Numbered from the stretch's first letter, positions 44,406 through 64,000 are shown. The stretch is 64,000 bases of DNA from Gemmatimonadota bacterium (GCA_002727195.1 PBWH01000005.1:529285-593284); one strand, 5' to 3'. Program-made: numbers and translations. Notes: a model not told the origin generated them from the sequence alone.

Positions 44406-44407
44406 AA

Positions 44408-45505: not shown

Positions 45506-45696
45506 ATGGCTGTGTGATATCACGCACAGATATTTGGCAGGTGTTTCGCGTAGCATGTATCGTGCGTGCTTCCTGGTGTTGCAGGGAGCGTCTTTTTTCT
45601 AGTCTAGGCTGTTCTTTTGTCCTTATTTACGCGTCTCGTTCACAAGATAGCCAGGGTCGGCTTAGACCGACCTTCACACAGTTTCGGAGGATCGCT

Positions 45697-48600: not shown

Positions 48601-51600
48601 GTCGAGACGATCGACGCAGAGGGGAACTCCAGCACCACGACAAACCTCTCCTTCGTCACCCGACGCGGTGCCGACACAGACGCACCGACCATTGTACGTG
48701 GCCCGCTCGTCACGAACATCACAGCCAGTTCAGCCACAGTCCGGTGGGAGACTGATGAACCTTCAGATACTCGCGTAAGTTGGGGGTCGTCTATCGATTA
48801 CGGTGAGACGATCGAAAAGGCCGAAGGTGTTCGTTTCCACTCGGTCACACTGACAGACCTCGATGCCGGTACCGAGTATCACTATGCCGTAGGCTCTGCC
48901 GACCTCGCGGGTAACGCGGTCACGACAGATGCGAACGGGACCGTCGTCGGGTTGAGTGAGGACCATACCTTCCGGACCCGCTCGACCGAGGACGAGTCAC
49001 CCCCGGTGATCACAGAGGGTCCGCTCGCAGAAATCAAGAACACCCTTGTAATCCTGAAATGGAAAACGGACGAACTCTCCACCTCACGCGTCACAATCGG
49101 TGTTAAACCAGGATCCGATGATGCCGCCGTGGAAGGGACTCCGGTCTTCGGTGAGAATTCGCAGATCGTATTCGACGACAACGACCTAACTCGGAAACAC
49201 ATCGTGACCGTGACCGGACTGAAACCGGGACTGGGCTACCTCTTCCAAGTTAGTTCAACCGATGCAGCGGGGAATACGGTGAAGGGCACGGACCCAACGG
49301 TGAATAAGAAGATCCAGCCGCCAGGAGGGTTCGGCAGCTTCACGACCACGACCGAAGCGGACACGCAGTTCCCGGTGATCACCGGGGGTCCTACAATCGT
49401 AGCCTCCACATCCAGCAGCCTCACGATCGAGTGGGAGACCGATGAAAGTGCGAACGGCACGATCGATTTCGGTACGGCCTCCGACGCGCTTGAGGAACAG
49501 GAAGTCACCGGAGCAAACGATACATCGCACCGCCTAACTCTCACCAAGCTGGCTGCGGGAACGACCTACTCTTACCAGATCGGATCGACGGACGCGTCGG
49601 GGAATGGAGCCACCAAGAGTGCGGTGGTCTCAGGCACGACAGCGGCTTCCGAGGATCTGACCGCACCGGTGATCAACGGAACGCCGTCGGTCATCTACGT
49701 CAACGATCGCCAGGCGACGATCAGTTGGGGAACTAACGAAGCAGCGGACTCCGAGGTCGCATTCGGAACTTCGGCAGAAGAGCTGCTCGAAACACGGAAC
49801 GACTCGGAGTTCAACACGAATCACAGTATCACACTTACGAACCTGAGCGCCGGAACGACGTACTACTACACGGTCAACTCGACCGATCAGAGCAACAACG
49901 GTCCGGCGACCAGTTCCGTTCAGGAGTTCACGACCGAATCGGCGCCGGATACGACGCCGCCGGTCTCGTCAGACATCTCCTCGGCCACAACTTCGACCGA
50001 GGCCCTGATCACCTGGAATACCGACGAGCTGTCCGACAGCGCGGTTCGCTACGGCACGACATCGGGAAGCCTCGACTTCAACACAGGCGACTCGGAAGAC
50101 GTGACGGACCACGCGATTACGCTCACCAACCTGACGCCTGCGACGACATACTCCTTCACGGTGGAGTCGATCGACCGAGCGGGTAACCAGGGTGCGGCGA
50201 GTTCCGAGCTCCAATTCACTACGCTGGCCGATGGTGCGTCACCGACGCTCGCAGCCCCCACTGGTGTGGCGGCGACAGCCGGTAACGCTGCGGTCCAGTT
50301 GAGCTGGACGGCCAGCAGTTCCGGTGGTGTGGTCGGTGTGGTGGTGGAGCGCTCAGCCGATAGTGGTGACTTCGCATCCATTGCCACATTGGACAACGTG
50401 ACCACCTACACGGACAACAACGTGGTCAACGGAACGAGCTACAGCTACCGCATCAGCGCGCTGGGACTCAACCAGTCTCAGGGCGATCCATCGACGGCGT
50501 CTGAAGCGGTGACGCCTGCCGCCGGTATCGGGCCCTCGGCTCCGACCCTCGCGATCAAGCAGGGCAACCCGCTCCAGCCGACGTTCGTGATCAATAACAG
50601 CACGCCGCTGAACGATGGTGACGTGCTGAACTACACGTTCCAGCTTTCATCGTCGTCTGACTTCTCCGACGCCCTCAGCCTCGATTCCGGTCTGGGTGAA
50701 GGCGCGGGAACCGGCGTGTCGGATCCGAGCGGAGTCACCGCCTGGACCGTCAGCCGTGAACTGGATGACGGGGTCACCTATCACTACCGGGTCAAGGCCA
50801 GCGACGGCACGTTCGACAGCGACTTCCTGACCGGGTCGTTCACGGTCAACGCCGCCGATCAGCCATTCCCTGGTGATCTGGACAGCGACTTCAATGTCGG
50901 GTTCGGTGACTTCCTGACCTTGATCGCTACGTTCAACTTGAGCTCGGGTAGCGACGGGTTCAACGCCGACGCGGACTTCGACGGAAGCGGTGCAGTCGAC
51001 TTTACAGACTTCCTGTCCTTCGTCGGGGTCTTCGGTAAGCAGTACGTCCAGGGCGACGGCGCCTCGTCCAAACCGGTCGTCATCACCAACGCCTACGGGA
51101 CGGACACCACGACCCGTCTGGAGCTGGTGGGGCGTCCGACATCCAGCGAAGAGGGTGGCGTGCTGATCGTCGAGGTGATGGCGAAGGATGCCGAGAAGAT
51201 GATGGGTACGGGACTCCGCCTGAGCTACGACACGGACGCGCTCGAGTTCGTCGACGCCTACCAGGGCAATAATGGATTGTTCAGCAAGGATGAGCGGAAG
51301 GCCGAGATCTTCGCCACACTCGAACACGACGCCACAGCCGGTGAACTGTTCGTGGCGGGCGCGATCACCGAAGGTGGTGCGGTGTCAGGTGACGGCGTCG
51401 TTTCGCGTCTGCGGTTCGTCCTCAAGACGGACCATCCGCAGGGCGACCTGATCTCGCTGAACGAGGGCCTGATCATCGACGGTGACCTCGTCGCCAACGT
51501 CGCTCAGAACCTGGGTGACCGTCTGGCGCTGGTCCCGGAGGACTTCACGCTGGGTCACAACTTCCCGAACCCGTTCAACCCGGAAACGACGATCCGCTAC

Positions 51601-51828
51601 GCAATTCCGGAAGCGGCTCAGGTCCGGTTGGTGGTCTACAACATCCTCGGACAGGAAGTTGTCAGGCTCGTTGATCGGGATCAGGTGCCCGGATTCTACG
51701 CACTGCGCTGGGACGGGAAGGATTCGTTCGGGCGTGGCGTGGCAAGCGGCGTGTATCTCTACAAGATCCACGCGGTGGGCGAGACGCGACGCTTCGCGCA
51801 GGTCCATAAGATGTTGCTGCTGAAGTAA
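45697..51828 (+). CDS. Giant secreted surface protein: cohesin-like modules, 10 tandem Fn3-like modules, Fn3, dockerin-like segment, cohesin-like module, T9SS-type C-terminal sorting domain
   Basis: The ATG at 45697 is preceded by GGAGG and yields a signal peptide (MCTNWARRLNSLYRQGLAAFVLAFTAVVGEAEAQ). The protein is about 2043 aa. The domain calls come from motifs listed in the sub-features. The GTG-start extension in the track (45514) is not hydrophobic or signal-like and is rejected. Confidence 0.85.
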   Translation: MCTNWARRLNSLYRQGLAAFVLAFTAVVGEAEAQGFPVQLLGAARASADVQLNSGDRTLSDTRTIEAKVGDTVVIEYFVTRWDGLQGLNAQFTFSDISMLSGEPKLSAGAPFSTPIPTLSGNTFATNQVSFSGPGSEPLDGSLKYMGHMTIELSGLFTSLTVTFDQVTLGEKVLQVGTELIIADPSALPKTFGADLNKDYGNQRVLDGRANPGGRFGVQTFAGGLSDVDEVEIRVEVDPTQIDGAATGFIPSEHFTVVPQEAGGLPPGRGSSLENVYVDIQRAGDNNHTPGGWTIEQRGGSSVAIEIFASGYEGANGATAKFRVSDPSAIAGLEHTGSPHFSIASLGPPELEGNILTTNVGNLAAPNDAPFQLVNTLILQLAPDFNGLVLELIEVEFPPSSLFGNPNAVLTVTPPGGVKGSLVGFSGNNITLRLAAQMPVSGNVGLGAFVFKTTPEFEQANLTFRQVTFIAGETTAGLEPDLTVSLRSNLSNAPTVSEPPVITSVTDTRAQIRWATNRAGTGKVLYGTSPGNLDQEAIVSQLGRVHQVAITGLTAGTRYFLKVTTTDIKGNESNAFPERPLILVTRRKPDTAPPRVVRGPAAVGITREAANILVELDEAATVDVLYGNSDTNLDQTISSTEEKRLHELKLAGLTPGATVFFKARATDQAGNVRETAKIRQFTLRSVADASAPLIVGRPTILGATFNAAVIRWLTTEPSSSLVRFGFEGEFSDSSESSELVNEHTIALSNLLADTLYSYQVESVDASGNEITSPTFTFRTRAGEDTIPPRITRPPVVARQSESEAVIVFETNEPATVTLQVDTDIAVASDTTGILGDTYSTTDATKRQEVLITNLDAATEYFYRIAVTDLTGNGPTYNRGQKSFVTRLAADTVAPILVRRPVALGISKEGASINWKADEPHSAIIRYRAAAAKKQSAGDYDEFVEDLDLSRKHAVPISGLQAGTRYEYEVETIDAEGNSSTTTNLSFVTRRGADTDAPTIVRGPLVTNITASSATVRWETDEPSDTRVSWGSSIDYGETIEKAEGVRFHSVTLTDLDAGTEYHYAVGSADLAGNAVTTDANGTVVGLSEDHTFRTRSTEDESPPVITEGPLAEIKNTLVILKWKTDELSTSRVTIGVKPGSDDAAVEGTPVFGENSQIVFDDNDLTRKHIVTVTGLKPGLGYLFQVSSTDAAGNTVKGTDPTVNKKIQPPGGFGSFTTTTEADTQFPVITGGPTIVASTSSSLTIEWETDESANGTIDFGTASDALEEQEVTGANDTSHRLTLTKLAAGTTYSYQIGSTDASGNGATKSAVVSGTTAASEDLTAPVINGTPSVIYVNDRQATISWGTNEAADSEVAFGTSAEELLETRNDSEFNTNHSITLTNLSAGTTYYYTVNSTDQSNNGPATSSVQEFTTESAPDTTPPVSSDISSATTSTEALITWNTDELSDSAVRYGTTSGSLDFNTGDSEDVTDHAITLTNLTPATTYSFTVESIDRAGNQGAASSELQFTTLADGASPTLAAPTGVAATAGNAAVQLSWTASSSGGVVGVVVERSADSGDFASIATLDNVTTYTDNNVVNGTSYSYRISALGLNQSQGDPSTASEAVTPAAGIGPSAPTLAIKQGNPLQPTFVINNSTPLNDGDVLNYTFQLSSSSDFSDALSLDSGLGEGAGTGVSDPSGVTAWTVSRELDDGVTYHYRVKASDGTFDSDFLTGSFTVNAADQPFPGDLDSDFNVGFGDFLTLIATFNLSSGSDGFNADADFDGSGAVDFTDFLSFVGVFGKQYVQGDGASSKPVVITNAYGTDTTTRLELVGRPTSSEEGGVLIVEVMAKDAEKMMGTGLRLSYDTDALEFVDAYQGNNGLFSKDERKAEIFATLEHDATAGELFVAGAITEGGAVSGDGVVSRLRFVLKTDHPQGDLISLNEGLIIDGDLVANVAQNLGDRLALVPEDFTLGHNFPNPFNPETTIRYAIPEAAQVRLVVYNILGQEVVRLVDRDQVPGFYALRWDGKDSFGRGVASGVYLYKIHAVGETRRFAQVHKMLLLK
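47167..50230 (+). repeat. Array of ten tandem ~100-aa Fn3-like modules (coding repeat)
   Basis: Each unit follows the pattern DTxAPxIxxGPxxxxxTxxxAxIxWxTxEPSxSxVxYG......H.v.LtgLxxgTxYxYxvxSxDxxGN....xFxT. The units are diverged at DNA level, and no near-identical copies are seen. Confidence 0.8.
50872..51045 (+). other. Dockerin-like duplicated Ca-binding segment
   Basis: GDLDSDFNVGFGDFLTLIATF plus DADFDGSGAVDFTDFLSFVGVFG form two EF-hand-like D-x-D-x-D loops, each followed by a helix. This is the dockerin type-I pattern. Confidence 0.6.
51109..51483 (+). other. Cohesin-like beta-sandwich module
   Basis: The layout GGVLIVEVMAKDAEKMMGTGLRLSYDTDALEFVDAYQG...GELFVAGAI...GDGVVSRLRFVLK matches the cohesin pattern (v.v.v.a..v..l.g....l.YD...L.f). 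Similar modules appear in the N-terminal ~480 aa (for example AKVGDTVVIEYFVTRWDGLQGLNAQFTFSD). Confidence 0.5.
51541..51825 (+). other. T9SS-type (Por secretion) C-terminal sorting domain
   Basis: LGHNFPNPFNPETTIRYAIPEAAQVRLVVYNILGQEVVRLV...GFYALRWDGKDSFGRGVASGVYLYKIHAVGETRRFAQVHKMLLLK closely follows the TIGR04183-type CTD consensus as I recall it. Confidence 0.8.
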
Positions 51829-51890: not shown

Positions 51891-51958
51891 GCCCTGCTTT
51901 GGTGGCGGGATTGGTGAGCGAACTCACACGTCTTGCCTTTGCATCTCCTTATATTCGC

Positions 51959-51987
51959 TTGACTTCGGAACGAGACACCCATAAAAT
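51959..51987 (+). promoter_or_regulatory. Putative sigma70-type promoter for the FG-GAP / barrel-TGase operon
   Basis: TTGACT (51959-51964), a 17-nt spacer, then TAAAAT (51982-51987), about 58 nt upstream of the ATG at 52046. Confidence 0.5.
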
Positions 51988-52045
51988 TCCGACGCCTGTA
52001 TCGGGCAAGTTTGAGACTGACACTTCCCTTAAGTCGTCGAGGCGC

Positions 52046-55000
52046 ATGACCCTCTTTCCTCCAGCCGGGATCCGACGCACGACTGCGCTCGCTCCCCTCC
52101 TGGCTTCATTCCTGATCGCCGTCTTTGCCGCGCCGGCTCGTGGTCAGACACTGGCCGCATCGCAGCAATTGACCGGCGTTTGGGGTGCATCCACTACGTG
52201 GGCGGATGTCGATGGGGACGGGGATGCCGACCTGCTCCTGACCGGCCTCACCGGTCCTGACGACAACTGTGAACCCGTTAGCCAGCTATATAGAAATGAC
52301 AGCGGTACGCTCGTCGAGCAGGCGACCAGTCTGCCCGGTATCCACCTGGGCGCGGTCGCCTTCGGCGACTACGACGGGGACGGCGACCTGGATCTGGCCC
52401 TGTCCGGAGCAACATCTGACGGGTCAGGAATCCTCACCCTCTACCGGAACAACGGTGGTTCTTTCTCCGAAGACATCAGCCAGTCTGGCCTGCTGTCAGA
52501 GACGCTCCGATATAGCACGCTCGCCTGGGGAGATTATGATGGCGACGGCGACACGGACCTGCTCGCTTCGGGTATGAATGCCGCCGGCAACGCCCGGACG
52601 GTCCTGTTCAACAATGGACGTATCAACGCGGATCGTGTGGGCAGTCCTCTTGGTGGATCCCCGATTCTCACCGAAGACATCCCCAACTCGGAACGAATGA
52701 TCAACCTCAGTCAGGGCAACGCGGCGTGGGGAGACCTGGACGGCGATGGAGACCTGGATCTGGCCGCCACGGGGTATGGCACCGACGGTGGACGCCAGGC
52801 CGCACTCTACATCAATGACCCGCTGGGAACCCTGACGCTGGATACCCGGAACGGCCAGTTGCCGCCACTGTCAGGTGGGGACATCGCCTGGGCGGACTAC
52901 GACGCTGATGGGGACCTGGATCTCGTGCTTTCGGGCTGGAACACCAATTGGGAGGCCACCTTCCAGATCTACACCAACGCTGCCGGAATCCTGAGGGAGG
53001 ACCTCTCTTTCAGCTCCCGGCGCATCGTGGGATCCCTGGCCTGGGGCGACTTCGACAACGATGGCGACCTCGACCTCGCCGCCTCAGGGCAGACGAACGT
53101 ATCCGAGCGACTTTCCTTCATCCTCGTAAATGAGCCTGTGGGGACGCTGACCGAAGACAACGGCCAATCCCTGGCGGGCGCGCGCGGCGGAGATCTCGCC
53201 TGGGCCGACGTCGATGCCGATGGGCACCTCGACCTGGTCATTGCGGGCGAAGTCGATGGCGAGGGACGCGAGACGACCGTCTACCGAAGCCAGGGCGGAT
53301 CCGTCACGAATTCGGTTCCACGGCCTCCGGACCGGCTCGGGAGTCCCTTCGTCACCAGCCTGGGCGTCGCGCTCGACTGGAACGACGGGACGGATGCCGA
53401 GTCCGCATCGACGGCGTTGACCTACAACCTCCGTATCGGCACCTCGCCGGGCGGAAACGACGTGTTCGCTGGATCGGTTCCGGTGGGGACGGGGAACGTC
53501 GGCTCCGCCAAAACGATCAGACTGGCCATACCGCTTGCTCGCGATACCTACTACTGGTCGGTACAGGCCGTAGACCCCGGATATGCCGTCTCGGCTGAGA
53601 GCCAGGAAGAGATCTTCCGCGTTCAGGATCTGGTCAGCTCCGTGCAGAATCTCCGTCCGCTTCGGGAGTCGGGATTCGAGTGGGGAGACTATGACAATGA
53701 CGGCGACCCGGACCTGGTGCTGTTCGGCCGGGACATCGACGGACGCGGCCGGTCGATCCTCTACCGCAACGACGGCGGGATCCTGACCGAGAACGCGAGC
53801 GTCGTGCTCCAGGGCATGCTGAACGGCGATGCGTCCTGGGGTGACTATGACAATGATGGAGACCTCGACCTGGCTCTGGTTGGTCAGGATGCGGGGGAGA
53901 ACCCCTACAGCCACCTCTACCGGAACCGGCTCGAGCTGGGAGACTTCGCGCTGAACATCGCGAACGTCCAGGCACTCGACCAGGTACGGTCCAGCGACGT
54001 GGACTGGGGGGACTACGACAACGATGGGGACCTCGACCTCGCGCTGATGGGACAGGTCATCGGGTCCAGAGTCACCAAGGTCTACCGGAACGACGACGGA
54101 ACGTTCGTCGAAGCCGTCTCGTTGACAGGTGTGGACAACGGAGACCTCGGGTGGGGCGACTACGACGACGACGGAGACCTCGACCTCGCCGTCATCGGTC
54201 AGACCTCCAACGCGTTCGAATCAACCTTGACCGTCTACCGCAACGACCCGGTCGGAACGCTCACCGAAGATACACGGTCTGCCCTATCCGGAGCATTTGC
54301 CGCTGCATTGGCGTGGGGTGACTACGACAGCGATGGCGATCTCGATCTCGGTGTTTCCGGCTTTGACCCGCAGGTTGGTCGGATCACGCGCGTCTACGAA
54401 AACGATGGAACGGGAATCCTTACCGACAGCGGGCAATCTGTTACAGGCGCGGCCGCTTCGGATCTCGATTGGGGCGACTTCGACAACGATGGCGATCTCG
54501 ATCTGGCCGTTCTGGGCAACACGGATGCGGGCCCGATCCTCGAGCTCTACCGAAACGACAACGGCGTCCTGGAAGAAGTGCCGATCGACATCCTTCGCGG
54601 CGTTGACTTCGGATCGCTCGGATGGGCGGACATCGACTCCGACGGTGACCTCGACTTGCTGAGCACCGGCCGCGCATCGGACGACGGCGTGAACTTCACG
54701 CTGACCTCCAGCGCGAACGACAACCTCGAATCTCGCTTCAACCCGAACGCGGCACCGATCCCGCCGGATGGGCTGACCTCCTCTACGGACGGAGCCGATA
54801 TCCAGCTGTCCTGGATGCAGGGGTCGGACGACGGCACATCACCAACGCCCACCGGTGCCCTCACATACGAAATCCGAGTGGGGGACAGCCCTGCGTCGAA
54901 CAATATCCGTTCTGGAGCGGGATCCGTCGAGTTCGGCGCGATCCGAACGACCAGCCTGGTGTTGAGAAACCTGCCGAGCGGGAGCTACAACTGGTCGGCC

Positions 55001-56107
55001 CGAACCATTGACGGGGGTCTTCAGACCTCCGACTGGTCCGGAGAGGAGACATTCATCGTCGACACCGTCAGTCCCGTCATCGACAGCGTTCAGGTGCGGC
55101 CGCGGGTGCTCACCCAGGGTCGCCGGGCATCGGTGGTGGTGGACTTCAACGATGAGCCGGCCGGCATGGACAACGCGGTCTCTCCGCGGGTGACTCTACA
55201 ACTCGCCAATCAGGCGTCCGAGCTCGAGCTTACCCAGCTCAGCTACAGCGGCGATCTCTGGATCGGGGAAGTCGACGTTGAGACCGACGTACCTTCGGGA
55301 AGTTTCGTCGTCCGGGTCTCCGGGGCCGTGGACCTCAAGGGGAACACCATGGAGCCGTTCGAGAGGTCGATCCCTGCGCTGATCGCCCCCGGCGGGGGTG
55401 GCATCGTGGAGAGCCCCGATGGGCTGCTGCGGCTTCGCCTCTCGCCAAACGTGCTGCCGGCTACGTTGTCCGAGAATCCCGATGTACGGATCGATCCCGT
55501 GGTGGTCGGTACAGAACCCTCCGGTGTGACGGCGAGTCACGGCGCCTATGAAATCACATCTGAGCCGGCTCTCACGCTGCGGAAAGCAGCGACCCTTGCA
55601 TTCGACATACCCCAGGGCGCCGCGACAGACCGACTCGCCGTATATCAGCTGAGTGGAACGGCGTGGACCAGGTTGGGAGGAACGGCGGCCGCGATGGTGT
55701 TCCGCGTTCCCGTGACTGAACTCGGGACCTACGGTCTCTTCGAGGACAGCGCTCAGTCGGGTGGTTCGGCAAGCGTGTCCAACATCGACTTCAGTAATCG
55801 CGCGTTCTCTCCACGCGGTGGAGGAGGCGGGCAGGCAGCGGGTCGACCGGCCCCCATTCTCTTACGCACAACCGACATCTCGTTCGACCTGTCCGGCTCT
55901 GCTTCCGTACGGATCGAAATCTACGATCGCTCGGGCCGACTGCAGAACGTGCTGGCCGCAGGCAGACAGATGAACGCCGGACGGAACGTCATAACGTGGG
56001 ACGGGCGCGACGGTGACGGGGATTCCGTTCGAAGTGGACTCTACATCGTTTCGATCGAGGCCGATGGCGAGCGTGAACAGAAGACAGTAGCGGTGGTCAA
56101 TCGATGA
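52046..56107 (+). CDS. Secreted protein with two seven-bladed FG-GAP/VCBS (integrin-alpha-like) beta-propellers, two Fn3-like domains, Ig-like region and FlgD-Ig-like C-terminal domain
   Basis: The ATG at 52046 gives a signal peptide (MTLFPPAGIRRTTALAPLLASFLIAVFAAPARGQ). There are 7 + 7 copies of W[GA]D[YVFLI]D[GND]DGDLDL Ca-loop motifs. Each set is followed by an Fn3-like domain (ALTYNLRIGTSPGGNDV..YYWSVQAVD and ALTYEIRVGDSPASNNI..YNWSARTID). The C-terminus SVRIEIYDRSGRLQNVL...ITWDGRDGDGDSVRSGLYIVSIEA is FlgD-Ig/CTD-like. Confidence 0.85.
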   Translation: MTLFPPAGIRRTTALAPLLASFLIAVFAAPARGQTLAASQQLTGVWGASTTWADVDGDGDADLLLTGLTGPDDNCEPVSQLYRNDSGTLVEQATSLPGIHLGAVAFGDYDGDGDLDLALSGATSDGSGILTLYRNNGGSFSEDISQSGLLSETLRYSTLAWGDYDGDGDTDLLASGMNAAGNARTVLFNNGRINADRVGSPLGGSPILTEDIPNSERMINLSQGNAAWGDLDGDGDLDLAATGYGTDGGRQAALYINDPLGTLTLDTRNGQLPPLSGGDIAWADYDADGDLDLVLSGWNTNWEATFQIYTNAAGILREDLSFSSRRIVGSLAWGDFDNDGDLDLAASGQTNVSERLSFILVNEPVGTLTEDNGQSLAGARGGDLAWADVDADGHLDLVIAGEVDGEGRETTVYRSQGGSVTNSVPRPPDRLGSPFVTSLGVALDWNDGTDAESASTALTYNLRIGTSPGGNDVFAGSVPVGTGNVGSAKTIRLAIPLARDTYYWSVQAVDPGYAVSAESQEEIFRVQDLVSSVQNLRPLRESGFEWGDYDNDGDPDLVLFGRDIDGRGRSILYRNDGGILTENASVVLQGMLNGDASWGDYDNDGDLDLALVGQDAGENPYSHLYRNRLELGDFALNIANVQALDQVRSSDVDWGDYDNDGDLDLALMGQVIGSRVTKVYRNDDGTFVEAVSLTGVDNGDLGWGDYDDDGDLDLAVIGQTSNAFESTLTVYRNDPVGTLTEDTRSALSGAFAAALAWGDYDSDGDLDLGVSGFDPQVGRITRVYENDGTGILTDSGQSVTGAAASDLDWGDFDNDGDLDLAVLGNTDAGPILELYRNDNGVLEEVPIDILRGVDFGSLGWADIDSDGDLDLLSTGRASDDGVNFTLTSSANDNLESRFNPNAAPIPPDGLTSSTDGADIQLSWMQGSDDGTSPTPTGALTYEIRVGDSPASNNIRSGAGSVEFGAIRTTSLVLRNLPSGSYNWSARTIDGGLQTSDWSGEETFIVDTVSPVIDSVQVRPRVLTQGRRASVVVDFNDEPAGMDNAVSPRVTLQLANQASELELTQLSYSGDLWIGEVDVETDVPSGSFVVRVSGAVDLKGNTMEPFERSIPALIAPGGGGIVESPDGLLRLRLSPNVLPATLSENPDVRIDPVVVGTEPSGVTASHGAYEITSEPALTLRKAATLAFDIPQGAATDRLAVYQLSGTAWTRLGGTAAAMVFRVPVTELGTYGLFEDSAQSGGSASVSNIDFSNRAFSPRGGGGGQAAGRPAPILLRTTDISFDLSGSASVRIEIYDRSGRLQNVLAAGRQMNAGRNVITWDGRDGDGDSVRSGLYIVSIEADGEREQKTVAVVNR

Positions 56108-57597
56108 TCAAACGCGCAAGCACCATACTGCACGGCGTATCTGCCGTATTCCTGGCGACGGGACTGGCCTGGGCTCAGCCCAGCTTCACCGATGTCACCT
56201 CGAGTGCGGGTGTGGCCAACTCGGTGCCCTCGACGGGAGCGCCAAGGGTCGGGACGGGCGCGGCGTGGGGCGACTACGACGACGACGGTGATCTCGATCT
56301 GTATGTGACCAATTGGGCGAGCTCCGTGTCGCAGAGCCTGAACAGGCTATACCGGAACAACGGCAACGGGACCTTCTCCGATGTCGCGAGTTCAGCCGGG
56401 ATGGGCAGCGTTGCGCGCAACAGCGTGGCCGCCAACTGGATCGACTACGACAACGATGGCGACCTCGACGTCTACGTCGTCAATTTCTTCGAGCAGGACC
56501 AGCTCTACCAGAACAATGGAAACGGGACCTTTACCCGGGTTACAGGCAGCGCAGACGTGAACGTCATTCGCCAGGGCGACGAAACGAATGCCGCCTGGGG
56601 TGACTACGATGGGGATGGATATCTCGACATCTACGTCTGCAAGCGGCGATTCCGGAACACCCTCTACCACAACAATGGAAACGGGACGTTCTCCGAGGTC
56701 GGCGAGTCCGCAGGTGTCGCCGATAACCGCGATTCAGAGGCTGCTGCGTGGGCGGACTACGACGCCGACGGGGACGTGGACCTCTACGTCGTCAACCGCG
56801 AGCAGAACAACGCGCTCTACAAGAACGACGGGAATGGGAACTTCACTGAAGTGGCCTGCGAGGCGTCTATCGACAACACGGACATCGGCCGGGGTGCGGC
56901 TTGGGTCGACTACGACCTCGACGGAGATCTCGATCTCTACGTCGTGAACGTCGGCGGGAACGCACTCTACCGGAACGATGGCAACGACACGTTCGTAAAC
57001 GTCGCGGACGGAGACATCAAGAACACGGGATCCTCCTGGATCAGCTGGACGAGCTCCTGGGCCGACTACGACACGGACGGAGACCTGGACGTTTTCGTGA
57101 CGAACGGAGCGGAATCGGAATCAGGCCAGGCCAGTGCGCTCCTGACCCAATCCAATGGGACCTTTACTGAGGAAACGGGAACAGGCCTGTCGGCCTCTCC
57201 GACGAACGCGATTGCTTCGGCGGCTGGAGACTACGACGGAGATGGCGACGTCGATCTCTACGTCGTGAACAGCCAATTCCCGAGTTTCGAGGCGTCGACC
57301 CTCTACAGAAACGATTCAGACCCGACAACCTACTTGACCGTGAGGCTACGCCGACAGACGACCGGTGGTGATTTGTCCGCCGATGGGATCGGCCTCAGGG
57401 TGCGTGTGCTCGATGGAGATACGCTGATCGGACACCACGTGATGAGCTCCGCCGAGAATGTCCAGGAAGCAGTGTTCGCCGTTCCGGCCGCTGTCACTGT
57501 CAGGGTCGAGGTTATCGGCCCAACCGGTCGCGTCACGGGATCGGACGTAGAAGTGGGAACTGTTCAACTGACCACCGTCGTGGGACTGACCGATTAG
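56104..57597 (+). CDS. Secreted seven-bladed FG-GAP propeller protein with ASPIC/UnbV-like C-terminus (CRTAC1 family-like)
   Basis: Signal peptide MIKRASTILHGVSAVFLATGLAWAQ and seven WxDYDxDGDLDLYVVN motifs. The C-terminal LYRND....YLTVRLRR...DGIGLRVRV resembles UnbV_ASPIC. ATGA overlap with the upstream gene. Confidence 0.8.
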   Translation: MIKRASTILHGVSAVFLATGLAWAQPSFTDVTSSAGVANSVPSTGAPRVGTGAAWGDYDDDGDLDLYVTNWASSVSQSLNRLYRNNGNGTFSDVASSAGMGSVARNSVAANWIDYDNDGDLDVYVVNFFEQDQLYQNNGNGTFTRVTGSADVNVIRQGDETNAAWGDYDGDGYLDIYVCKRRFRNTLYHNNGNGTFSEVGESAGVADNRDSEAAAWADYDADGDVDLYVVNREQNNALYKNDGNGNFTEVACEASIDNTDIGRGAAWVDYDLDGDLDLYVVNVGGNALYRNDGNDTFVNVADGDIKNTGSSWISWTSSWADYDTDGDLDVFVTNGAESESGQASALLTQSNGTFTEETGTGLSASPTNAIASAAGDYDGDGDVDLYVVNSQFPSFEASTLYRNDSDPTTYLTVRLRRQTTGGDLSADGIGLRVRVLDGDTLIGHHVMSSAENVQEAVFAVPAAVTVRVEVIGPTGRVTGSDVEVGTVQLTTVVGLTD

Positions 57598-60500
57598 ATG
57601 CGCCTGCTCCTGACCATACTACTCTTGATCCCGTGGGCCGTTTCTCCCGCCCACGCGGACCGACCTTCCATGGCAACGACAGCCCGCACGATCGCGCTGG
57701 GCGGAACTGTCACCGCGCTCTCGAACGACGCCTCCACAACCTTCTGGAATCCCTCGGGTGTCGCCACGCTGCAGCGGCAGGAGCTGGTCTTCTCTTACGC
57801 CGACCGGTTCGGACTCGGCCTGAGCAACAGCTACACCAGCTACGTATTCCCGCTTTTCGAGCGCCACGCGGTCGGCGTCGACTGGTTGCGCGAGAGTTTC
57901 GGCGACAACGAACTCGAAGATGCCCTCAACATCATCAACCTCAGCTACGGTATGCAGTTGCACCGGGCATTGTCCCTGGGTGTCGGCTCCAAGGCGGTCT
58001 TCCAGAGCATCGACCTCGACGAGGTGAGCCTGCGCAGTGCAAGCGGCTTCGGCTTCGACCTCGGTCTCGTGCTGACACCGAAGACGAGCCCGTTCGACAG
58101 GCTGAGAGTCGGGCTGACGGTTCAGGACATCGGCGGAACCAAGGTTCGAGACAGCAATACCCAGTTCGAGGAGGAGATCCTCGAGCAGAACATCCGCGGC
58201 GGTATCGCGATCCAGGCGACACGGGACATCACGATCGCGGCGGACGTCGACCAGAACGCGATCCACTTCGGGGCGGAGTACCAGCCGATCGCGTCGCTGA
58301 TCGTACGGGGTGGGCTCAACAAGGCGCTGAGCGAGCCCTCCGGGGGAGACAACTCGCTCGCCTTCGCGCTCGGCTTTGGCCTGAAATACAACTCGATCCA
58401 GCTCGACTACGCTTTCGAGAACCACCCGGTCCTGCCGGCGACACACCACATTACGGCAGCCCTGTCCTACAACGCGTCTGTCATCAGCATCAAGGACGCG
58501 ATCATCCGGCCGGCGCCGATCTTCAAGTCTCTCTACCGGACCTACGAGGCGAGTGAGTTCGCCGACGTCGTCCTCCGGAACTCTTCAGCCGACCCGATGG
58601 ACGTGACCGTCACCATCGAGGTCCCCACGCTGACCGATGCGCCCCACGAAGAGTCGTTCACCGTGCCCGCTCAGACCACTGAGCGATACGGACTGAAGCT
58701 CACGTTCCCACAGGATCTCCTGTCGACCCAACCGTCCTACTACGACAACCTGGTTCAGCCGACCGTCAAGGTCACCTACCAGCAGGGACGACGCGCAAAG
58801 ACGTCGAGCAAGACGCTCAACAGTGTGTATGTCCTCGGTAAAGGGAAGCTCTCCTGGTCGAACCCGCGGAGGATCGCGGCATTCATCACGCCCGAGAGCC
58901 GGACCGTCGACAGCTTTGCCCGTGGGCTCGTGGCTCAGTATGCCGACCAGCTGCGCGACAAGTTCGGCAACAACAACATGGGTAAGGCCGCGCTGATTTT
59001 CGACGCCATCGGGGCGCACGGGCTGCGTTACCAGCAGGATCAGACCACGCCGTATCTCGAGATTTTCGAGGATGACTCGGTATTCGACACGGTCAAGTAT
59101 CCGTATGAGTATCTGGATGCGAAGATCGGCGACTGTGACGACTGTACAGCGCTGTTCTGCTCGATGCTCGAGAACCTGAACATCCCCACCGCCATCCTGG
59201 ACGTCAACGACCCGGAGTATGGCCACATATATATGATGTTCGACAGCGGCATCTCGGTGCAGAACGCCGGTGACTTTTTCCTGAACGAGAAGGAATACGT
59301 CCTCTGGGACAACCGGATCTGGATCCCGGTCGAGACGACGCTGTTCGGCTCCTCCTTCTCGGATGCCTGGCGGAACGGCGCGAAAGAATACTACATCCGG
59401 AAAGAACGCGGCTACATCAACGAGATCCTGGTGTCTGACGCACAGGGGACGTTCCGTCCTGGCGTCGTGCCGGACATCGAGATCGAAGTGCCATCGGCGG
59501 ACAAGATCGCTGAACTCTTCGACCGGGACCTCTCGTTCTTCGATAACCGTCTGGACCGGATCGCCCTCTCGTCTGGCGTGTCGCTCGATTCCGCCGAGGG
59601 TCTGTATGATGCAGGCGCGGCTTACCTGAGGCTGGCGCAGCTGGATCGTGCGGAGACGTCGTTCACCGACGCGATCAAGATGGATCCCGAAATGGCGGAT
59701 GCCTACAACGCGCTCGGCGTGGTAATGACGCGGCAACGCCAGTATGACCAGGCCCTGGAGTTGTTCAACAAGGCACTCGAACTCAATCCGAACGATGCCG
59801 GCTTCCGGATTAACGTCGCCCTGGCCTATCACCTCCAGGGACGGTCCGAGGACGCTGAGCAGGCCTATCAGCTGGCCATCGACACCAACAGCGACTTTGC
59901 CGGCGCGCTCAGTTTCCTCTCTGGCGGCGGAACGGCCGGCGCACAGAAGACGGATCCCCTCAACCGGATCGCCTCGGAAAAGTCATACGAAGATGGTGCC
60001 GCTTTCCTCAGGCTGAACAGGTTGGATCGCGCGACCGAGGCTCTGGACCGAGCCCTGTCACTAAACCCGAACAACGCCGAAGCGTTGAACGCCAAGGGCG
60101 TCATCGCCACGCGTGAACGTCAGTATGACGAGGCCCTCGCGCTGTATCAGCGGGCCGTAAACGTGACGCCGGGGAACGCCGGGTTCCACGCCAACCTGGC
60201 CATTACCTACCATCTGCAGGGTAAGAAGGATCAGGCGATTCAGGCCTACCGCAAAGCGGTCGACCTGGACGACAACTTTGACGGCCAGCTGGACTTCATC
60301 ACCGGCGGGCAACCGATCCAATCGATTGAGATCGCTTCGACGCCCTCGTCAAAAACTGCGGGGCCGCTCCAGAAGATCGCCGCCGAGAAGGCATATGACG
60401 ACGGCGCCGCCTTCCTCAGGCTGGGCCGACTGGATCGGGCTTCGGAGCAGTTCGACCGCGCCCTGTCTCTCAACCCAAACAACGTCGATGCCATGAACGG

Positions 60501-60717
60501 CAAAGGCGTGGCCGCCACCCGGCTACGGAAGTATAACGAAGCCGTCGAGATGTTCAACCGGGCCATTGCCCAGGATCCTGACAATGGCGGATTCCTGATC
60601 AACCTGGCGATCTTGCGTTATCTGCAGGGCGATGGTGACGGGGCCAGGGAGGCCTACGAGAAGGCTGTGATTGCCGATCCAGGCATGGAAGGCCAGTTGG
60701 AGTTTCTCGAAAAATAG
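57598..60717 (+). CDS. Fusion protein: N-terminal outer-membrane beta-barrel (PorV/PorQ- or FadL-like), transglutaminase-like cysteine-protease core, three TPR super-repeats
   Basis: Signal peptide MRLLLTILLLIPWAVSPAHA. The motif TARTIALGGTVTALSNDASTTFWNPSGVA is followed by about 14 amphipathic beta-strands in the first ~290 aa. The transglutaminase-like core is KIGDCDDCTALFCSMLENLNIPTAIL...YGHIYMMF...RIWIPVETT, with the candidate Cys codon at 59134-59136. The ATG comes directly after the upstream TAG. Confidence 0.7.
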   Translation: MRLLLTILLLIPWAVSPAHADRPSMATTARTIALGGTVTALSNDASTTFWNPSGVATLQRQELVFSYADRFGLGLSNSYTSYVFPLFERHAVGVDWLRESFGDNELEDALNIINLSYGMQLHRALSLGVGSKAVFQSIDLDEVSLRSASGFGFDLGLVLTPKTSPFDRLRVGLTVQDIGGTKVRDSNTQFEEEILEQNIRGGIAIQATRDITIAADVDQNAIHFGAEYQPIASLIVRGGLNKALSEPSGGDNSLAFALGFGLKYNSIQLDYAFENHPVLPATHHITAALSYNASVISIKDAIIRPAPIFKSLYRTYEASEFADVVLRNSSADPMDVTVTIEVPTLTDAPHEESFTVPAQTTERYGLKLTFPQDLLSTQPSYYDNLVQPTVKVTYQQGRRAKTSSKTLNSVYVLGKGKLSWSNPRRIAAFITPESRTVDSFARGLVAQYADQLRDKFGNNNMGKAALIFDAIGAHGLRYQQDQTTPYLEIFEDDSVFDTVKYPYEYLDAKIGDCDDCTALFCSMLENLNIPTAILDVNDPEYGHIYMMFDSGISVQNAGDFFLNEKEYVLWDNRIWIPVETTLFGSSFSDAWRNGAKEYYIRKERGYINEILVSDAQGTFRPGVVPDIEIEVPSADKIAELFDRDLSFFDNRLDRIALSSGVSLDSAEGLYDAGAAYLRLAQLDRAETSFTDAIKMDPEMADAYNALGVVMTRQRQYDQALELFNKALELNPNDAGFRINVALAYHLQGRSEDAEQAYQLAIDTNSDFAGALSFLSGGGTAGAQKTDPLNRIASEKSYEDGAAFLRLNRLDRATEALDRALSLNPNNAEALNAKGVIATRERQYDEALALYQRAVNVTPGNAGFHANLAITYHLQGKKDQAIQAYRKAVDLDDNFDGQLDFITGGQPIQSIEIASTPSSKTAGPLQKIAAEKAYDDGAAFLRLGRLDRASEQFDRALSLNPNNVDAMNGKGVAATRLRKYNEAVEMFNRAIAQDPDNGGFLINLAILRYLQGDGDGAREAYEKAVIADPGMEGQLEFLEK
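59591..60714 (+). repeat. Three tandem ~130-aa super-repeats, each of about 3 TPR motifs (coding repeat)
   Basis: The units begin EGLYDAGAAYLRLAQLDRAE, EKSYEDGAAFLRLNRLDRAT and EKAYDDGAAFLRLGRLDRAS. Each ends in a hydrophobic/Gly tail: ALSFLSGG, QLDFITGG, QLEFLEK. Confidence 0.8.
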
Positions 60718-60954: not shown

Positions 60955-61452
60955 ATGAAGCGCTTCTTGTCCCTCGCCCTCGCGGGCTTTGTTGCAGCAA
61001 GCATGATCGCCACACCGGCTCTTGCAGAAGAAAAGAAGGACGAAGAAAAGAATGACGACAAAGTCAAGGTGTCGAGCGCCTTTCTGAACCGCTGGAAGAA
61101 GATTAAGAAGGTGGCCGAGAATCGTGGCCACGAAACACAGCAGACACGCACGGTCGCTGGTGTGCGTGGCGCCGAGGCTGAAGATGCCGTCCTGGACCAG
61201 CTCTACTACAAGGGCGGAGTTCGCTACCCCAGCCGTGTCGACCTGAAGAACGCGATTACACAGCTTCAGGAGTCGATCAAGGCCGACCCGAAGGCCGAGA
61301 CGGTACCGGAGCAGAAGTATTTCATCGCACAGTGTCACACCCAGCTTGGCGAGACGGATGCAGCCAACGCCGTGTATACGGACATCGTCGAGAATCACGC
61401 TGATTCCGACTTCGCCGCCCAGGCGAAGGAAGATCTCGAGAAATTCGAATAA
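60955..61452 (+). CDS. Small secreted protein with Lys/Glu-rich region and TPR/YbgF-like C-terminal helix pair
   Basis: AGGAGG RBS and signal peptide MKRFLSLALAGFVAASMIATPALA. The C-terminal segment KYFIAQCHTQLGETDAANAVYTDIVENHADSDFAAQAKEDL is TPR-like. Confidence 0.6.
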   Translation: MKRFLSLALAGFVAASMIATPALAEEKKDEEKNDDKVKVSSAFLNRWKKIKKVAENRGHETQQTRTVAGVRGAEAEDAVLDQLYYKGGVRYPSRVDLKNAITQLQESIKADPKAETVPEQKYFIAQCHTQLGETDAANAVYTDIVENHADSDFAAQAKEDLEKFE

Positions 61453-61627: not shown

Positions 61628-64000
61628 ATGGCAGACGAAGAGAAGAAAGCGCAGCAGAATGATTGGAGTCACGTCGTACTCGGCGTCGCTTCAGGCGTCA
61701 TAATCGCACTGTTCTCTCTGACCCATTTTTACCAGGACCTCGAGTCCAGCAGCTACGATTTCCGTTTCCTCAAGCGGAACGACTGGCTTGGCATACCTCG
61801 GCAAATGCCCGAGGTCGCGACTGTCGACATCGATGACGCCGCCCTTCAGGAGCACGGGTGGCCGATGACCCGCGACAAGCACGCACGGCTGGTGGAGACC
61901 ATCCATCGGTATGGCGCCCGCATGATCGGCTTCGATATCTTCTTCTATGAACCAGCAGGCCAGGATCTCTCACCTGACGACCTCGAGTCGATAGAAGGCG
62001 AACAACTCGCGCGGTCCGACCTCCTCTCTCTCGTGAAGGACTATGATCGGGAGTTCGTGGAGGCCGCCGAGCAGACCGGGATTGTCTACAACGCGCAAAC
62101 CTTCGAGATCGCTGAGGACAAGACCCTGGACTTCACGCAGGAGAACCTGAGATCTCGGAGCCCGGAGAAGGACGCGGCGGTTACCGAGCTGTCCCGTTTC
62201 TCGGTACCTATGGATCCTTCCCGAGCGGAACGGTTCTACCTGGCCACAGATATAGAGGTGCCGCTCAGTGAGTATATCCGAACCTCGCGCGGGATCGGGT
62301 TCGCGCTGCCTAAGCCAGACCACGACGGGATCGTCCGCCGGTATCGTCTGGCCCTCTACTATGACGGTCGGGTGTATTTCTCGCTAGGCCTAGCCATGGC
62401 CTGCGACTACCTGAACGTTCCCCTCGAACACGTGCGGTTCGAGGAAGGCTACATTGGTCTCCCCAACGCGAAGGTCGACGGACAGACCATCCGGGAGATC
62501 CGAATCCCGACCAAGGGCAAGTACGAGATGCTCGTCAACTGGGCAGGCTCGTTCAACGGCACCTACAGGCACTTCCCATACAACCTGATTCTGGACTTTG
62601 CCGAGACGGAGCCCCAGAATCGGGCGCTCAAGTTTGCCAAACGGATCTTTCACGAGGACGAGGCGCTGTTCGGGGATGACGACGGCTACCTGAAGGCGAC
62701 AGCTGACAACGGTCTCGCAGATATCAGCCCCGATGTGCTGATGGAGTACCGGATGGCCGTTATGGATTGTTCTGCGATCGAGGCCTGGCTGTCCGAAGAC
62801 GCATCCAGACCAATCGAGGATTTCCTCAGGGCAATGGGCGTCCCGGACGAAGAGCTGGCCTACGGGAAGGAGCTGATGGGCCCGCTGTTCCAAGAGGTCC
62901 AGCAGAACGTGCGGATCGCGTCGGTGCTCGAGGCCAGCCCCGACATGCCGACCGCCGACGTGGCATCACACGTCGGCGCACGGATCGCTGACATTGACCA
63001 CAATGTCGGTGTCATCCGCTCGCTCGTGAAGGGCGGGGGAATCCAGGCACACCATCGTCCGCTGTACTTCCTAGACCGGGTCAAAACGGAGGGCATCCTT
63101 GGTGAGAGCGCGGACGCTAGGGTCATGAGCCGAGAAGAGTTCGAGGGAACGGTCTTCTTCTACGGGCTCACGGCAACGGGCACACACGACCTGAACCCAA
63201 CACCCTTTGGTGCACGAGAAGCGATGCTCGGTGCGCACGTTAACGTGTTCAACACGATCCTGACGCGGAACTTCCTGGATAGGATCCCCTACTGGCAGAA
63301 CGCGACGATCATGGTTGTGCTTGGCCTTCTGATCGGTTTTCTCGTTCCCCGTTTCAAGGCAATGTCGGGGGCGCTCGTGGTGCTTGTTTTGCTCAGTCTC
63401 TATGTCGTGGCAGCCTTCGTCTTGTTCCTCAACCTCGAGCTGTGGGTGGATATCTTGGGACCGGTCACAACGTTGACCGTCGGTTACCTGACCATCACGC
63501 TGTATAACTACGTACAGAAAGAAAAGGAGAAGGACTTCGTTCAGGGCGCCTTCGGCCACTATCTGGATCCGAAGGTCGTGGACCAGCTGGTGGAAAACCC
63601 GAACCTCGTCACCCAGTTGGGCGGCGATCAACGGGTCATGACTGTCTTCTTCTCGGATATCGCGAGCTTCTCGACCATATCGGAGAACATCACTGCCGTG
63701 GAACTCGTCGAGTTGCTGAACGAGTATCTCACAGAGATGTGCGAGATCATTGCCATTCACGATGGCACGATCGACAAGTTTGAGGGCGACGCCATTATGG
63801 CGTTCTGGGGAGCGCCGGTACCAATGCACGATCACGCCCAGGCTGCGGTCTTCGCCTGTATCGACATGCAGCAGAAGTGTCGGGAGCTCCGGGAGAAGTT
63901 CGAGCGCGAGAACCGAATGGTGGAGTTGCGTCAGATGTGGGCCGACCAGGGGCGGGGCGAGTTCCTCAGGGTTCGGATGGGTGCGAACACAGGGGAGATG
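61628..64000 (+). CDS. CHASE2-sensor, membrane-anchored class III adenylate/guanylate cyclase (3' end outside window)
   Basis: Open frame from the ATG at 61628 to the window edge, absent from the track because it has no stop. It has an N-terminal TM and a CHASE2-like region (VATVDIDDAALQEHGWPMTRDKHARLVETI..GFDIFF, DHDGIVRRY). TM helices follow, then the cyclase core (RVMTVFFSDIASFSTISE, KFEGDAIMAFWGAP). Confidence 0.8.
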   Translation, partial: MADEEKKAQQNDWSHVVLGVASGVIIALFSLTHFYQDLESSSYDFRFLKRNDWLGIPRQMPEVATVDIDDAALQEHGWPMTRDKHARLVETIHRYGARMIGFDIFFYEPAGQDLSPDDLESIEGEQLARSDLLSLVKDYDREFVEAAEQTGIVYNAQTFEIAEDKTLDFTQENLRSRSPEKDAAVTELSRFSVPMDPSRAERFYLATDIEVPLSEYIRTSRGIGFALPKPDHDGIVRRYRLALYYDGRVYFSLGLAMACDYLNVPLEHVRFEEGYIGLPNAKVDGQTIREIRIPTKGKYEMLVNWAGSFNGTYRHFPYNLILDFAETEPQNRALKFAKRIFHEDEALFGDDDGYLKATADNGLADISPDVLMEYRMAVMDCSAIEAWLSEDASRPIEDFLRAMGVPDEELAYGKELMGPLFQEVQQNVRIASVLEASPDMPTADVASHVGARIADIDHNVGVIRSLVKGGGIQAHHRPLYFLDRVKTEGILGESADARVMSREEFEGTVFFYGLTATGTHDLNPTPFGAREAMLGAHVNVFNTILTRNFLDRIPYWQNATIMVVLGLLIGFLVPRFKAMSGALVVLVLLSLYVVAAFVLFLNLELWVDILGPVTTLTVGYLTITLYNYVQKEKEKDFVQGAFGHYLDPKVVDQLVENPNLVTQLGGDQRVMTVFFSDIASFSTISENITAVELVELLNEYLTEMCEIIAIHDGTIDKFEGDAIMAFWGAPVPMHDHAQAAVFACIDMQQKCRELREKFERENRMVELRQMWADQGRGEFLRVRMGANTGEM

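Follow-up and report, generated by a model that had tools for sequence, protein, structure and literature searches.

A PorV-family barrel joined to a predicted cysteine enzyme and tetratricopeptide repeats in a conserved, undescribed operon of FCB-group bacteria

Type IX secretion system (T9SS) cargo proteins that carry a type A C-terminal domain (CTD) are collected from the translocon by PorV, and SprF/PorP-like barrels do likewise for type B; the cognate SprF/PorP shuttle genes lie directly downstream of genes for type B CTD cargo (PMC12618676). In the LapA-LapG-LapD system, a periplasmic transglutaminase-like, Ca2+-dependent protease controls the retention of a giant adhesin, with an inner-membrane cyclic-nucleotide signalling protein in charge. 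To our knowledge, shuttles of the PorV type are so far known in Bacteroidota alone and as bare barrels without further domains, and no ligand has been known for the CHASE2 sensor domain since it was defined. The gene analysed here is located in a 64,000-nucleotide stretch of a Gemmatimonadota bacterium genome (GCA_002727195.1, PBWH01000005.1:529285-593284; hereafter the window, with positions counted from its first nucleotide). It encodes a fusion of a PorV-family barrel, a β-sandwich, a transglutaminase-fold domain and a tetratricopeptide repeat (TPR) array. Its product is the hallmark of an envelope module that is conserved in phyla of the Fibrobacteres-Chlorobi-Bacteroidetes (FCB) group, and the operon, carried by uncultured phyla of this group, is conserved and undescribed. 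The reading favoured here, to which taken as a whole we give somewhat less than an even chance, is that the protein is a cargo-dedicated shuttle or anchor of the PorV type, that it carries a periplasmic cassette of enzyme and TPRs, and that it is tied to a CHASE2 sensor.

The open reading frame was found at the position and length given in an earlier note on this DNA, with all motifs quoted there in place: TARTIALGGTVTALSNDASTTFWNPSGVA corresponds to aa 28-56 of the fusion protein, GDCDDCTALFCSML, which includes Cys513, to aa 511-524, YGHIYMMF to aa 541-548 and WIPVETT to aa 575-581. The ATG abuts the TAG stop of the preceding gene with zero gap. An AlphaFold2 (AF2) model of aa 1-660 was built using 44 homologues as input (mean predicted local distance difference test score, pLDDT, 87.5) and a separate model of aa 290-660 gave a mean pLDDT of 92.0 and a predicted template modelling (TM) score, pTM, of 0.89. 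Structure evidence consisted of DSSP strings and Foldseek scores against the PDB. The protein was divided as follows.

57598..60717 (+), whole fusion gene (1039 aa), encoding in this order a signal peptide, a PorV-family barrel, a β-sandwich, a transglutaminase-fold domain and three TPR super-repeats
57598..57657 (+), Sec signal peptide, aa 1-20, ending in SPAHA with DR following; read from the sequence, N-terminal pLDDT low
57658..57777 (+), N-terminal hatch, aa 21-60, with the A-R-x-I-A-L-G-G motif; homologue alignment and AF2
57778..58470 (+), outer-membrane β-barrel of the PorV/PorQ family, read as 14-stranded, aa 61-291; NF033709, Foldseek and DSSP
58483..58857 (+), Ig-like β-sandwich, aa 296-420; AF2 and Foldseek
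58864..59457 (+), transglutaminase-fold (papain-like) α/β domain, aa 423-620; Foldseek, Pfam on family members, and conservation
59131..59139 (+), D512-C513-D514 with the predicted nucleophile Cys, Cys513 codon at 59134-59136; conservation
59224..59226 (+), codon of His543, with which β-strand 543-549 begins; predicted general base; conservation and AF2
59332..59334 (+), codon of Glu579, predicted third triad position, directly after β-strand 573-578; conservation and AF2
59497..59574 (+), long linker helix into the TPR array, aa 634-659; AF2
59590..59928 (+), TPR super-repeat 1, aa 665-777; Pfam and local alignment
59956..60309 (+), TPR super-repeat 2, aa 787-904; Pfam and local alignment
60364..60708 (+), TPR super-repeat 3, aa 923-1037; Pfam and local alignment

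The NCBIfam PorV/PorQ family model NF033709 scored 99.0 bits against a cutoff of 90, matching aa 25-287 to model positions 9-322 of 326. The corresponding equivalog models failed (PorV NF033710, 37.1 of the 250 bits required; PorQ NF033711, 35.2 of 220; PorV2 NF052325, 51 of 325). The barrel is a member of the PorV/PorQ family and not a PorV or PorQ orthologue. DSSP assigned 16 strand elements to aa 61-291 of the AF2 model. We count them as 14 strands, taking 169-176/181-185 for what looks like a single kinked strand and 191-195/198-206 for another. The strands are preceded in the model by a hatch of short helices (aa 25-60), of which R30, N51 and P52 are invariant among 44 full-length homologues and whose A-R-x-I-A-L-G-G motif is typical of the PorV/FadL family. 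Best Foldseek matches of the barrel were the solved PorV chains 6h3i_F (TM-score 0.66) and 8gl6_F (0.62), both with E ~1e-11, the TM values being normalised to target length and the rmsd amounting to 3.5-4.2 Å over 332-352 columns. Ranked below PorV were FadL, TodX, CymD and TbuX (E 1e-8 to 1e-10, rmsd 7-10 Å). Pfam gathering scores were missed by the barrel for PorP_SprF PF11751 (18.3 against 22.3 bits, E = 0.0018) and for Toluene_X PF03349 (14.2 against 29.7 bits, on the N-terminal motif only), and matches to the Pfam families PorV and UPF0164 were likewise sub-threshold. In these respects the PorV/PorQ-like barrel of about 14 strands proposed earlier from the sequence held up.

The strong fold matches to FadL, TodX, CymD and TbuX, together with the weak Toluene_X match, could be taken to indicate a FadL-like channel unrelated to the T9SS, in which a hydrophobic small molecule, taken up or exported by the barrel, would be the substrate of the periplasmic enzyme. 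Such a role is very unlikely: the PorV chains score best and superpose at far lower rmsd, the PorV/PorQ family model is above its cutoff and Toluene_X below, and the conserved neighbours described below are CTD-bearing giant proteins and not genes of lipid or aromatic catabolism. With the PorV proteins of F. johnsoniae (6H3I/8GL6) and P. gingivalis, the fusion shares the 14-strand FadL-type barrel, the N-terminal hatch motif and the encoding together with CTD-bearing cargo. It differs in having a smaller barrel (~270 aa) with short loops that misses the equivalog cutoffs, in a 750-aa C-terminal extension, predicted to be periplasmic, that is present in no described PorV, and in its occurrence outside Bacteroidota. 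By gene order it is dedicated to one variant-CTD cargo, whereas PorV serves all type A cargo. Matches to this barrel (E 3e-8 to 2.5e-7) were also obtained for 9hjm_F and 9n2d_B, subunits of recently solved complexes of the Bacteroidota β-barrel assembly machinery that are PorV/FadL-like barrels. In view of these matches, some barrels of the PorV family may serve the biogenesis of the outer membrane instead of the T9SS.

The part following the barrel (β-sandwich, transglutaminase-fold domain and TPRs) is referred to as the cassette. Its middle had been read earlier as transglutaminase-like from a Cys/His/acidic arrangement, which agrees with the fold comparison and with weak but repeated matches of Pfam transglutaminase-like models; the β-sandwich (aa 296-420) and the helices of aa 423-473, which AF2 places in the catalytic domain, had been missed. 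By Foldseek, the sandwich matches the N-terminal sandwich of TG2 and factor XIII (FXIII), Asf1 and complement MG domains. The best PDB fold match of aa 290-660 is TG2 (9bc2_A; E = 9e-5, probability 0.97), covering sandwich and core over ~400 columns, followed by more TG2 entries, factor XIII and 3kd4_A, a putative protease of Bacteroidales (probability 0.96); the remaining matches cover the β-sandwich alone. The overall TM-scores to TG2/factor XIII and 3kd4_A are low (0.2, at a sequence identity of ~10%) because two domains are compared at once that are differently oriented. TG2/factor XIII and 3KD4 thus share with the fusion the order of an N-terminal β-sandwich and a transglutaminase core, and they differ in domain orientation, in the third residue, which is Glu in the fusion, and in a completely different context. 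A trimmed cassette profile gave nothing significant by sequence against the PDB, so that fold comparison was needed; the same search from an alignment with full-length rows was swamped by TPR matches.

In the AF2 model, helix 513-526 begins with Cys513, strand 543-549 begins with His543 and Glu579 comes after strand 573-578, a placement on secondary structure that, as modelled, is canonical for the transglutaminase fold. Of 13 family members, 7 matched DUF553 (best E = 4e-6) and 6 matched Transglut_core (best E = 1.8e-4), always in the region of the Cys helix. The partial Pfam matches, which are sub-threshold, put Cys513 on the Transglut_core nucleophile. When the cassette profile was aligned by hhalign to a TG2 core segment, Cys513 fell on Cys277, at low probability and over the Cys helix only, leaving His and Glu unplaced, so that this is a weak lead.

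Conservation was determined in the best 150 cassette representatives at a mutual identity of ≤50%. Cys513, His543 and Glu579 are each kept in 148/150, so that the domain is probably a live enzyme, as judged from its sequence relatives. The acidic third residue, suspected from the start to be Glu, is accordingly Glu and conserved as such. Around the nucleophile, D512 and D514 are found in 149/150 each and D515 in all 150, the G-D-C-D-D motif being kept in 149-150 of the 150; Y478 (148/150), D481 (146/150), D497 (149/150) and T581 (146/150) are conserved to a similar degree. The 44 full-length homologues (36-83% identity) have an invariant G511-D-C-D-D515, with ≥90% conservation of H543 and E579. 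This pattern speaks for catalysis, and probably also for the binding of a metal. In DvhG, a protease of the LapG type, the residues on either side of the catalytic Cys are the ligands of Ca2+ (D316-C317-E318; PMC13090378), and by analogy D512/D514 around Cys513 are a possible Ca2+ site as in LapG/DvhG.

It could also be supposed that the transglutaminase fold is a non-catalytic module that binds peptidoglycan or another envelope part and, together with the TPRs, fixes the barrel in the manner in which PorE or PorW hold other parts of the T9SS. Inactive transglutaminase folds do exist, e.g., Rad4/XPC, and Glu in place of Asp is unusual for the fold. Furthermore, one natural homologue of 41% identity, P0071, has His543 replaced by Gly and Glu579 by Gln with G-D-C-D-D kept, and it may be an inactivated paralogue, judging from its sequence. 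We consider a purely structural tether improbable, since the retention of Cys, His and Glu in 148/150 distant relatives and the presence of four more invariant acidic residues around the Cys are hard to explain without catalysis or metal binding.

The LapG/DvhG proteases resemble the fusion in being periplasmic transglutaminase-fold Cys enzymes (the location of the fusion enzyme being a prediction) with acidic residues flanking the nucleophile, and in being encoded with giant adhesin-like proteins and an inner-membrane signalling protein bearing a periplasmic sensor domain. They are unlike it in several ways: the fusion has a Cys-His-Glu and not a Cys-His-Asp triad and does not match Peptidase_C93/BTLCP, its enzyme is tethered to an outer-membrane barrel where LapG is soluble, the adhesins are of T9SS type with a C-terminal signal and not of type I secretion system type, and the partner is a CHASE2 cyclase or phosphatase instead of a cyclic di-GMP receptor. 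Membership of the LapG/BTLCP family was rejected on sequence and on fold rank; of that candidate the analogy of the D-C-D motif alone remains.

The C-terminal part consists of three real TPR super-repeats, as had been noticed in the sequence, of 113-118 aa each with a pairwise identity of 44-59% and local alignment scores of 247-344, compared to 31 ± 6 for shuffled sequences. Pfam TPR_1 PF00515 scored 178.7 bits against 27.8 (E = 4e-54) and TPR_2 167.7 bits. Periplasmic TPR arrays attached to or associated with the outer-membrane barrels of secretion systems are known from PorE, PorW/SprE and proteins of the BcsC/PgaA type. Compared to these, the order in the fusion is inverted, with the barrel first, the TPRs last and an enzyme between them, and the fusion is without an OmpA-like peptidoglycan-binding domain.

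According to the model the cassette should be periplasmic, because it starts ~4 residues after an even-numbered (14th) strand and because the barrel-less relatives are Sec-only: they have a Sec signal peptide, no lipobox and no CTD. The earlier note had suggested an enzyme analogous to PorU/PorV that could process or cross-link the cargo. A PorU-like enzyme acts on the CTD at the cell surface, a location with which both observations disagree. In that scheme, the transglutaminase-fold domain would substitute for PorU, cleave the CTD of the cargo and transamidate the cargo to lipopolysaccharide or another surface acceptor, with the barrel acting as PorV in the same polypeptide. Its attractions are that transglutaminase chemistry is an acyl transfer from a Cys thioester, as a sortase needs, that the gene directly follows CTD-bearing cargo genes, and that the triad is conserved. 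A surface sortase is nonetheless quite improbable: the few residues between strand and cassette provide no lumen-spanning linker and the lumen is probably filled by the N-terminal hatch, the TPR arrays also point to the periplasm, and PorU reaches the surface through its own CTD, which the fusion protein lacks.

The neighbouring genes of the module in the window are the following.

45514..51828 (+), giant protein of up to 2104 aa built of Fn3/Pur_ac_phosph_N repeats and bearing a T9SS CTD of canonical type A (NFPNPFNPET...); TIGR04183 27.9 bits against 23
51899..56107 (+), giant FG-GAP β-propeller protein, up to 1402 aa, with a variant FlgD_ig/T9SS-like CTD; presumed cognate cargo
56104..57597 (+), FG-GAP protein of 497 aa that has a signal peptide but lacks a CTD; the start codon lies over the stop of the gene before it (ATGA), and the stop codon directly adjoins the ATG of the fusion
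60955..61452 (+), small secreted TPR protein, 165 aa, YbgF/CpoB-like; family hidden Markov models (HMMs)
61628..64000 (+), CHASE2 sensor with a class III adenylate/guanylate cyclase, the open reading frame continuing beyond the window at its 3' end; E = 4.5e-41 for CHASE2 and 4.9e-11 for Guanylate_cyc

Because start codons overlap or abut the upstream stops, the genes for the 1402-aa protein, the 497-aa protein and the fusion are translationally coupled. The same gene order was found in relatives of 40-54% identity, and orthologues of the 497-aa FG-GAP protein are present in loci L001, L007 and L008. The link to CTD cargo encoded upstream, proposed at the outset, is thereby strongly supported. 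For the 1402-aa protein, the true start is probably an internal Met before the signal peptide, and the tail matches FlgD_ig PF13860 with 37.8 bits against 27. Its variant CTD comprises the last 95 aa (window 55820-56104) and was seen also in L001, L004, L008 and L012. The tails of the linked cargo form a CTD subclass of their own, marked by DCQPR, F-S/T-P-x-GG, T-x-I-S-F, SGRL, W-D-G and SGLY-I-V and ending in V-V-N-R, without the PNPFNP motif of canonical type A CTDs. As in the PorP/SprF systems with type B CTDs (PMC12618676), the barrel gene lies immediately downstream of a giant adhesin-like cargo gene and each system has its own CTD subclass. Unlike in those systems, the barrel belongs to another family, the CTD is an Ig-like relative of FlgD_ig/type A and not TIGR04131 type B, and SprF proteins are without an enzyme or TPR extension.

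The neighbourhood was surveyed using local HMMs for each partner in 79 species-level loci of GTDB containing the cassette. The barrel was fused to the cassette in 76/79 loci, the other three being cut at a contig end or interrupted. A variant CTD was encoded upstream in 64/79, directly before the fusion in 20 loci and one FG-GAP gene further in 44, and 11 of the 15 misses were without upstream flank. The small TPR protein followed downstream in 72 of the 79 loci. A CHASE2 gene was adjacent on the same strand in 63/79, downstream in 50 and upstream in 13; 14 of the 16 misses were without the relevant flank and CHASE2 was truly absent, given sufficient flank, at L054 and L071. A more distant barrel-type relative, L012, combines a Reg_prop-propeller/FlgD_ig cargo with a CHASE2-SpoIIE sensor, in which a SpoIIE/PP2C phosphatase output takes the place of the cyclase (L012:10974-13103); therefore CHASE2 is the constant part and not the output domain.

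The persistence of the CHASE2 gene can be taken further. In a trans-envelope sensor with signalling as its primary purpose, the giant propeller would be a surface receptor whose state passes via the barrel and the periplasmic cassette/TPR part to CHASE2 and sets the cyclase or phosphatase output. The logic would be like that of FecA-FecR, with the CHASE2 sensor or the small TPR protein as a target that the enzyme might cleave or modify. Consistent with this, the CHASE2 gene is kept next to the fusion even where its position was rearranged between phyla, the output varies while CHASE2 is constant, and one NHL-type barrel-less cassette gene also adjoins a CHASE2-cyclase gene. In addition, propellers are fused directly to the cassette in barrel-less relatives, a link of the Rosetta-stone type. 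The evidence for it is gene neighbourhood, three Reg_prop-type cassette genes and the barrel-type loci L054 and L071 are without CHASE2, and the scheme overlaps with the favoured reading without excluding it. On balance, signalling as the primary function is rather unlikely.

If the fusion is, as favoured here, a dedicated PorV-type shuttle or anchor tied to CHASE2, the barrel would bind the giant neighbouring protein at its variant CTD after that protein's passage of the outer membrane, and the cassette would hang into the periplasm. That the barrel may be a dedicated shuttle is suggested by the division of labour in which PorV takes type A CTD cargo and SprF/PorP-like barrels type B. The cassette would function as a cysteine enzyme that acts on a periplasmic partner or segment, a protease or transamidase assisted by Ca2+ being the likeliest kind. 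The TPR arms might recruit the CHASE2 domain, the small TPR protein or the periplasmic FG-GAP protein, a contact by which the display or release of the surface protein could be coupled to CHASE2-controlled cyclic-nucleotide signalling. Such a logic would resemble that of LapD-LapG-LapA with different parts, and this is its closest functional analogy. That the operon is a new trans-envelope system of FCB-group bacteria, a T9SS counterpart of LapA-LapG-LapD in which a giant T9SS-type surface protein is held by a PorV-like barrel and periplasmic Cys-His-Glu enzyme/TPR arms contact a CHASE2 sensor, is a bolder proposition and, in our estimate, a rather unlikely one; it would provide CHASE2 with its first physiological input or partner.

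Several observations weigh against the favoured reading, as do the substitutions in P0071. On the side of the barrel, all extracellular loops are short in the model and the solved PorV chains are larger (345-367 residues); therefore, CTD capture may work differently or not occur. TIGR04183 scored 21.2 bits on the CTD of the 1402-aa cargo, just under the cutoff of 23. With respect to the enzyme, Pfam transglutaminase models remained sub-threshold on the window protein (Transglut_core PF01841, 15.6 of 23 bits; DUF553 PF04473, 14.7 of 20.5; E = 0.02 for both), no match to BTLCP/Peptidase_C93 PF06035 was obtained at E ≤ 1 in the 13 family members, and LapG was absent among the top 50 Foldseek matches of aa 290-660. 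The lack of a CHASE2 neighbour at the three Reg_prop-type barrel-less cassette genes means that contact between cassette and CHASE2 is no general property of the cassette. Finally, part of the literature has the T9SS confined to Bacteroidota; other papers extend it to the FCB superphylum.

Whatever its mechanism, a PorV-type barrel is here permanently joined to a conserved predicted enzyme and a TPR platform and matched with a CTD subclass of its own. It occurs in six phyla, most of them uncultured, in which type IX-like secretion is essentially unstudied. If the favoured reading is true, cargo-specific sorting in T9SS-like systems would be older and more varied than the split between type A/PorV and type B/SprF, and the surface display of giant propellers would be wired to cyclic-nucleotide signalling. 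CHASE2 sensors would in that case gain a concrete partner.

The earlier note had regarded the protein as an unusual fusion, and named as grounds for dismissal that the architecture be common and already characterised. The fusion family is large, phylogenetically broad and uncharacterised, and it is not rare. After clustering at 90% identity, the full barrel-cassette-TPR layout was found in ~70 clusters (40-87% identity), for which public records give the names 'TPR repeat protein' or 'PorV/PorQ family protein' only; the closest named relative, at 85% identity, is labelled Latescibacterota, judging from which the window, too, most likely derives from that phylum. An exhaustive HMM search with the cassette returned 2,429 representatives at 50% clustering, 1,254 of them with E ≤ 1e-30. 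The cassette is a large unannotated family that merits its own family definition. The architecture is common, then, and none of its members is characterised: in the literature searched, for PorV with transglutaminase and TPR, for CHASE2 with transglutaminase and for the T9SS in these phyla, no earlier description was found. In a scan of GTDB species representatives, the family occurred in Latescibacterota, Gemmatimonadota, KSB1, Handelsmanbacteria, Zixibacteria and Marinimicrobia, all as metagenome-assembled genomes (MAGs) or single-amplified genomes. Complete chromosomes of Latescibacterota with the operon include OZ240241.1, OZ252228.1, OZ244235.1 and OZ242214.1. Two contigs bearing the operon are labelled 'Thaumarchaeota archaeon' (L073, PAWD01000034.1) and 'Enterobacterales' (L042, CAZSZE010000145.1), which most likely are binning or labelling errors.

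Among the best 150 cassette representatives, 53 have a barrel, 63 a long different N terminus and 20 almost no N terminus. Sampled architectures without a barrel were Reg_prop propellers with Y_Y_Y, cassette and TPR; NHL propeller with TPR, cassette and TPR; and cassette with TPR alone. In the barrel-less proteins P0086, P0087, P0090, P0094, P0099 and P0116 (L009, L013, L014, L095), the cassette stands behind Reg_prop and Y_Y_Y, CBM9 or NHL, or alone. One Latescibacterota MAG (JACPJE01) encodes both the barrel-type L056 and the Reg_prop-type L095. P0104, a shorter gene of the barrel type, has β-helix proteins on its flanks in place of the usual neighbours.

The 2104-aa protein contains ~8 repeats of Pur_ac_phosph_N/Fn3 type and a weak dockerin-like stretch. 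Its GTG start (45514) probably lies too far upstream, because a segment resembling a signal peptide begins near aa 62. L007, a locus of Handelsmanbacteria, has a comparable gene at this position. The cargo genes are immediately preceded on the same strand by MinD/ParA-like ATPase and GT9 heptosyltransferase-like genes at 43380-45505 (+). These two are probably outside the module, because other lineages carry NusG and CTP_transf_like genes there. The genes from 9 to 45 kb of the window are housekeeping or metabolic, and no T9SS core genes were found among the annotated window parts.

Downstream of the CHASE2 gene, a TPR protein (~231 aa), a protein of 203 aa and one resembling YfiO/BamD are encoded in L001 (16816-18917) and ~28-33 other Gemmatimonadota/Latescibacterota loci. 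Marinimicrobia carry T2SSB-like and secretin genes just upstream of the CHASE2 gene (L004:1-2889; 8-9 loci). With these genes the module seems to reach further, although this, the T2SSB-like and secretin genes included, may be synteny at the level of lineages only. In L007 (6810-8312), genes for a DUF5647 protein, a methyltransferase and a HicA toxin and a small open reading frame lie between the genes for the giant FG-GAP protein and a 501-aa FG-GAP protein; the otherwise tight operon tolerates a mobile-looking insertion there.

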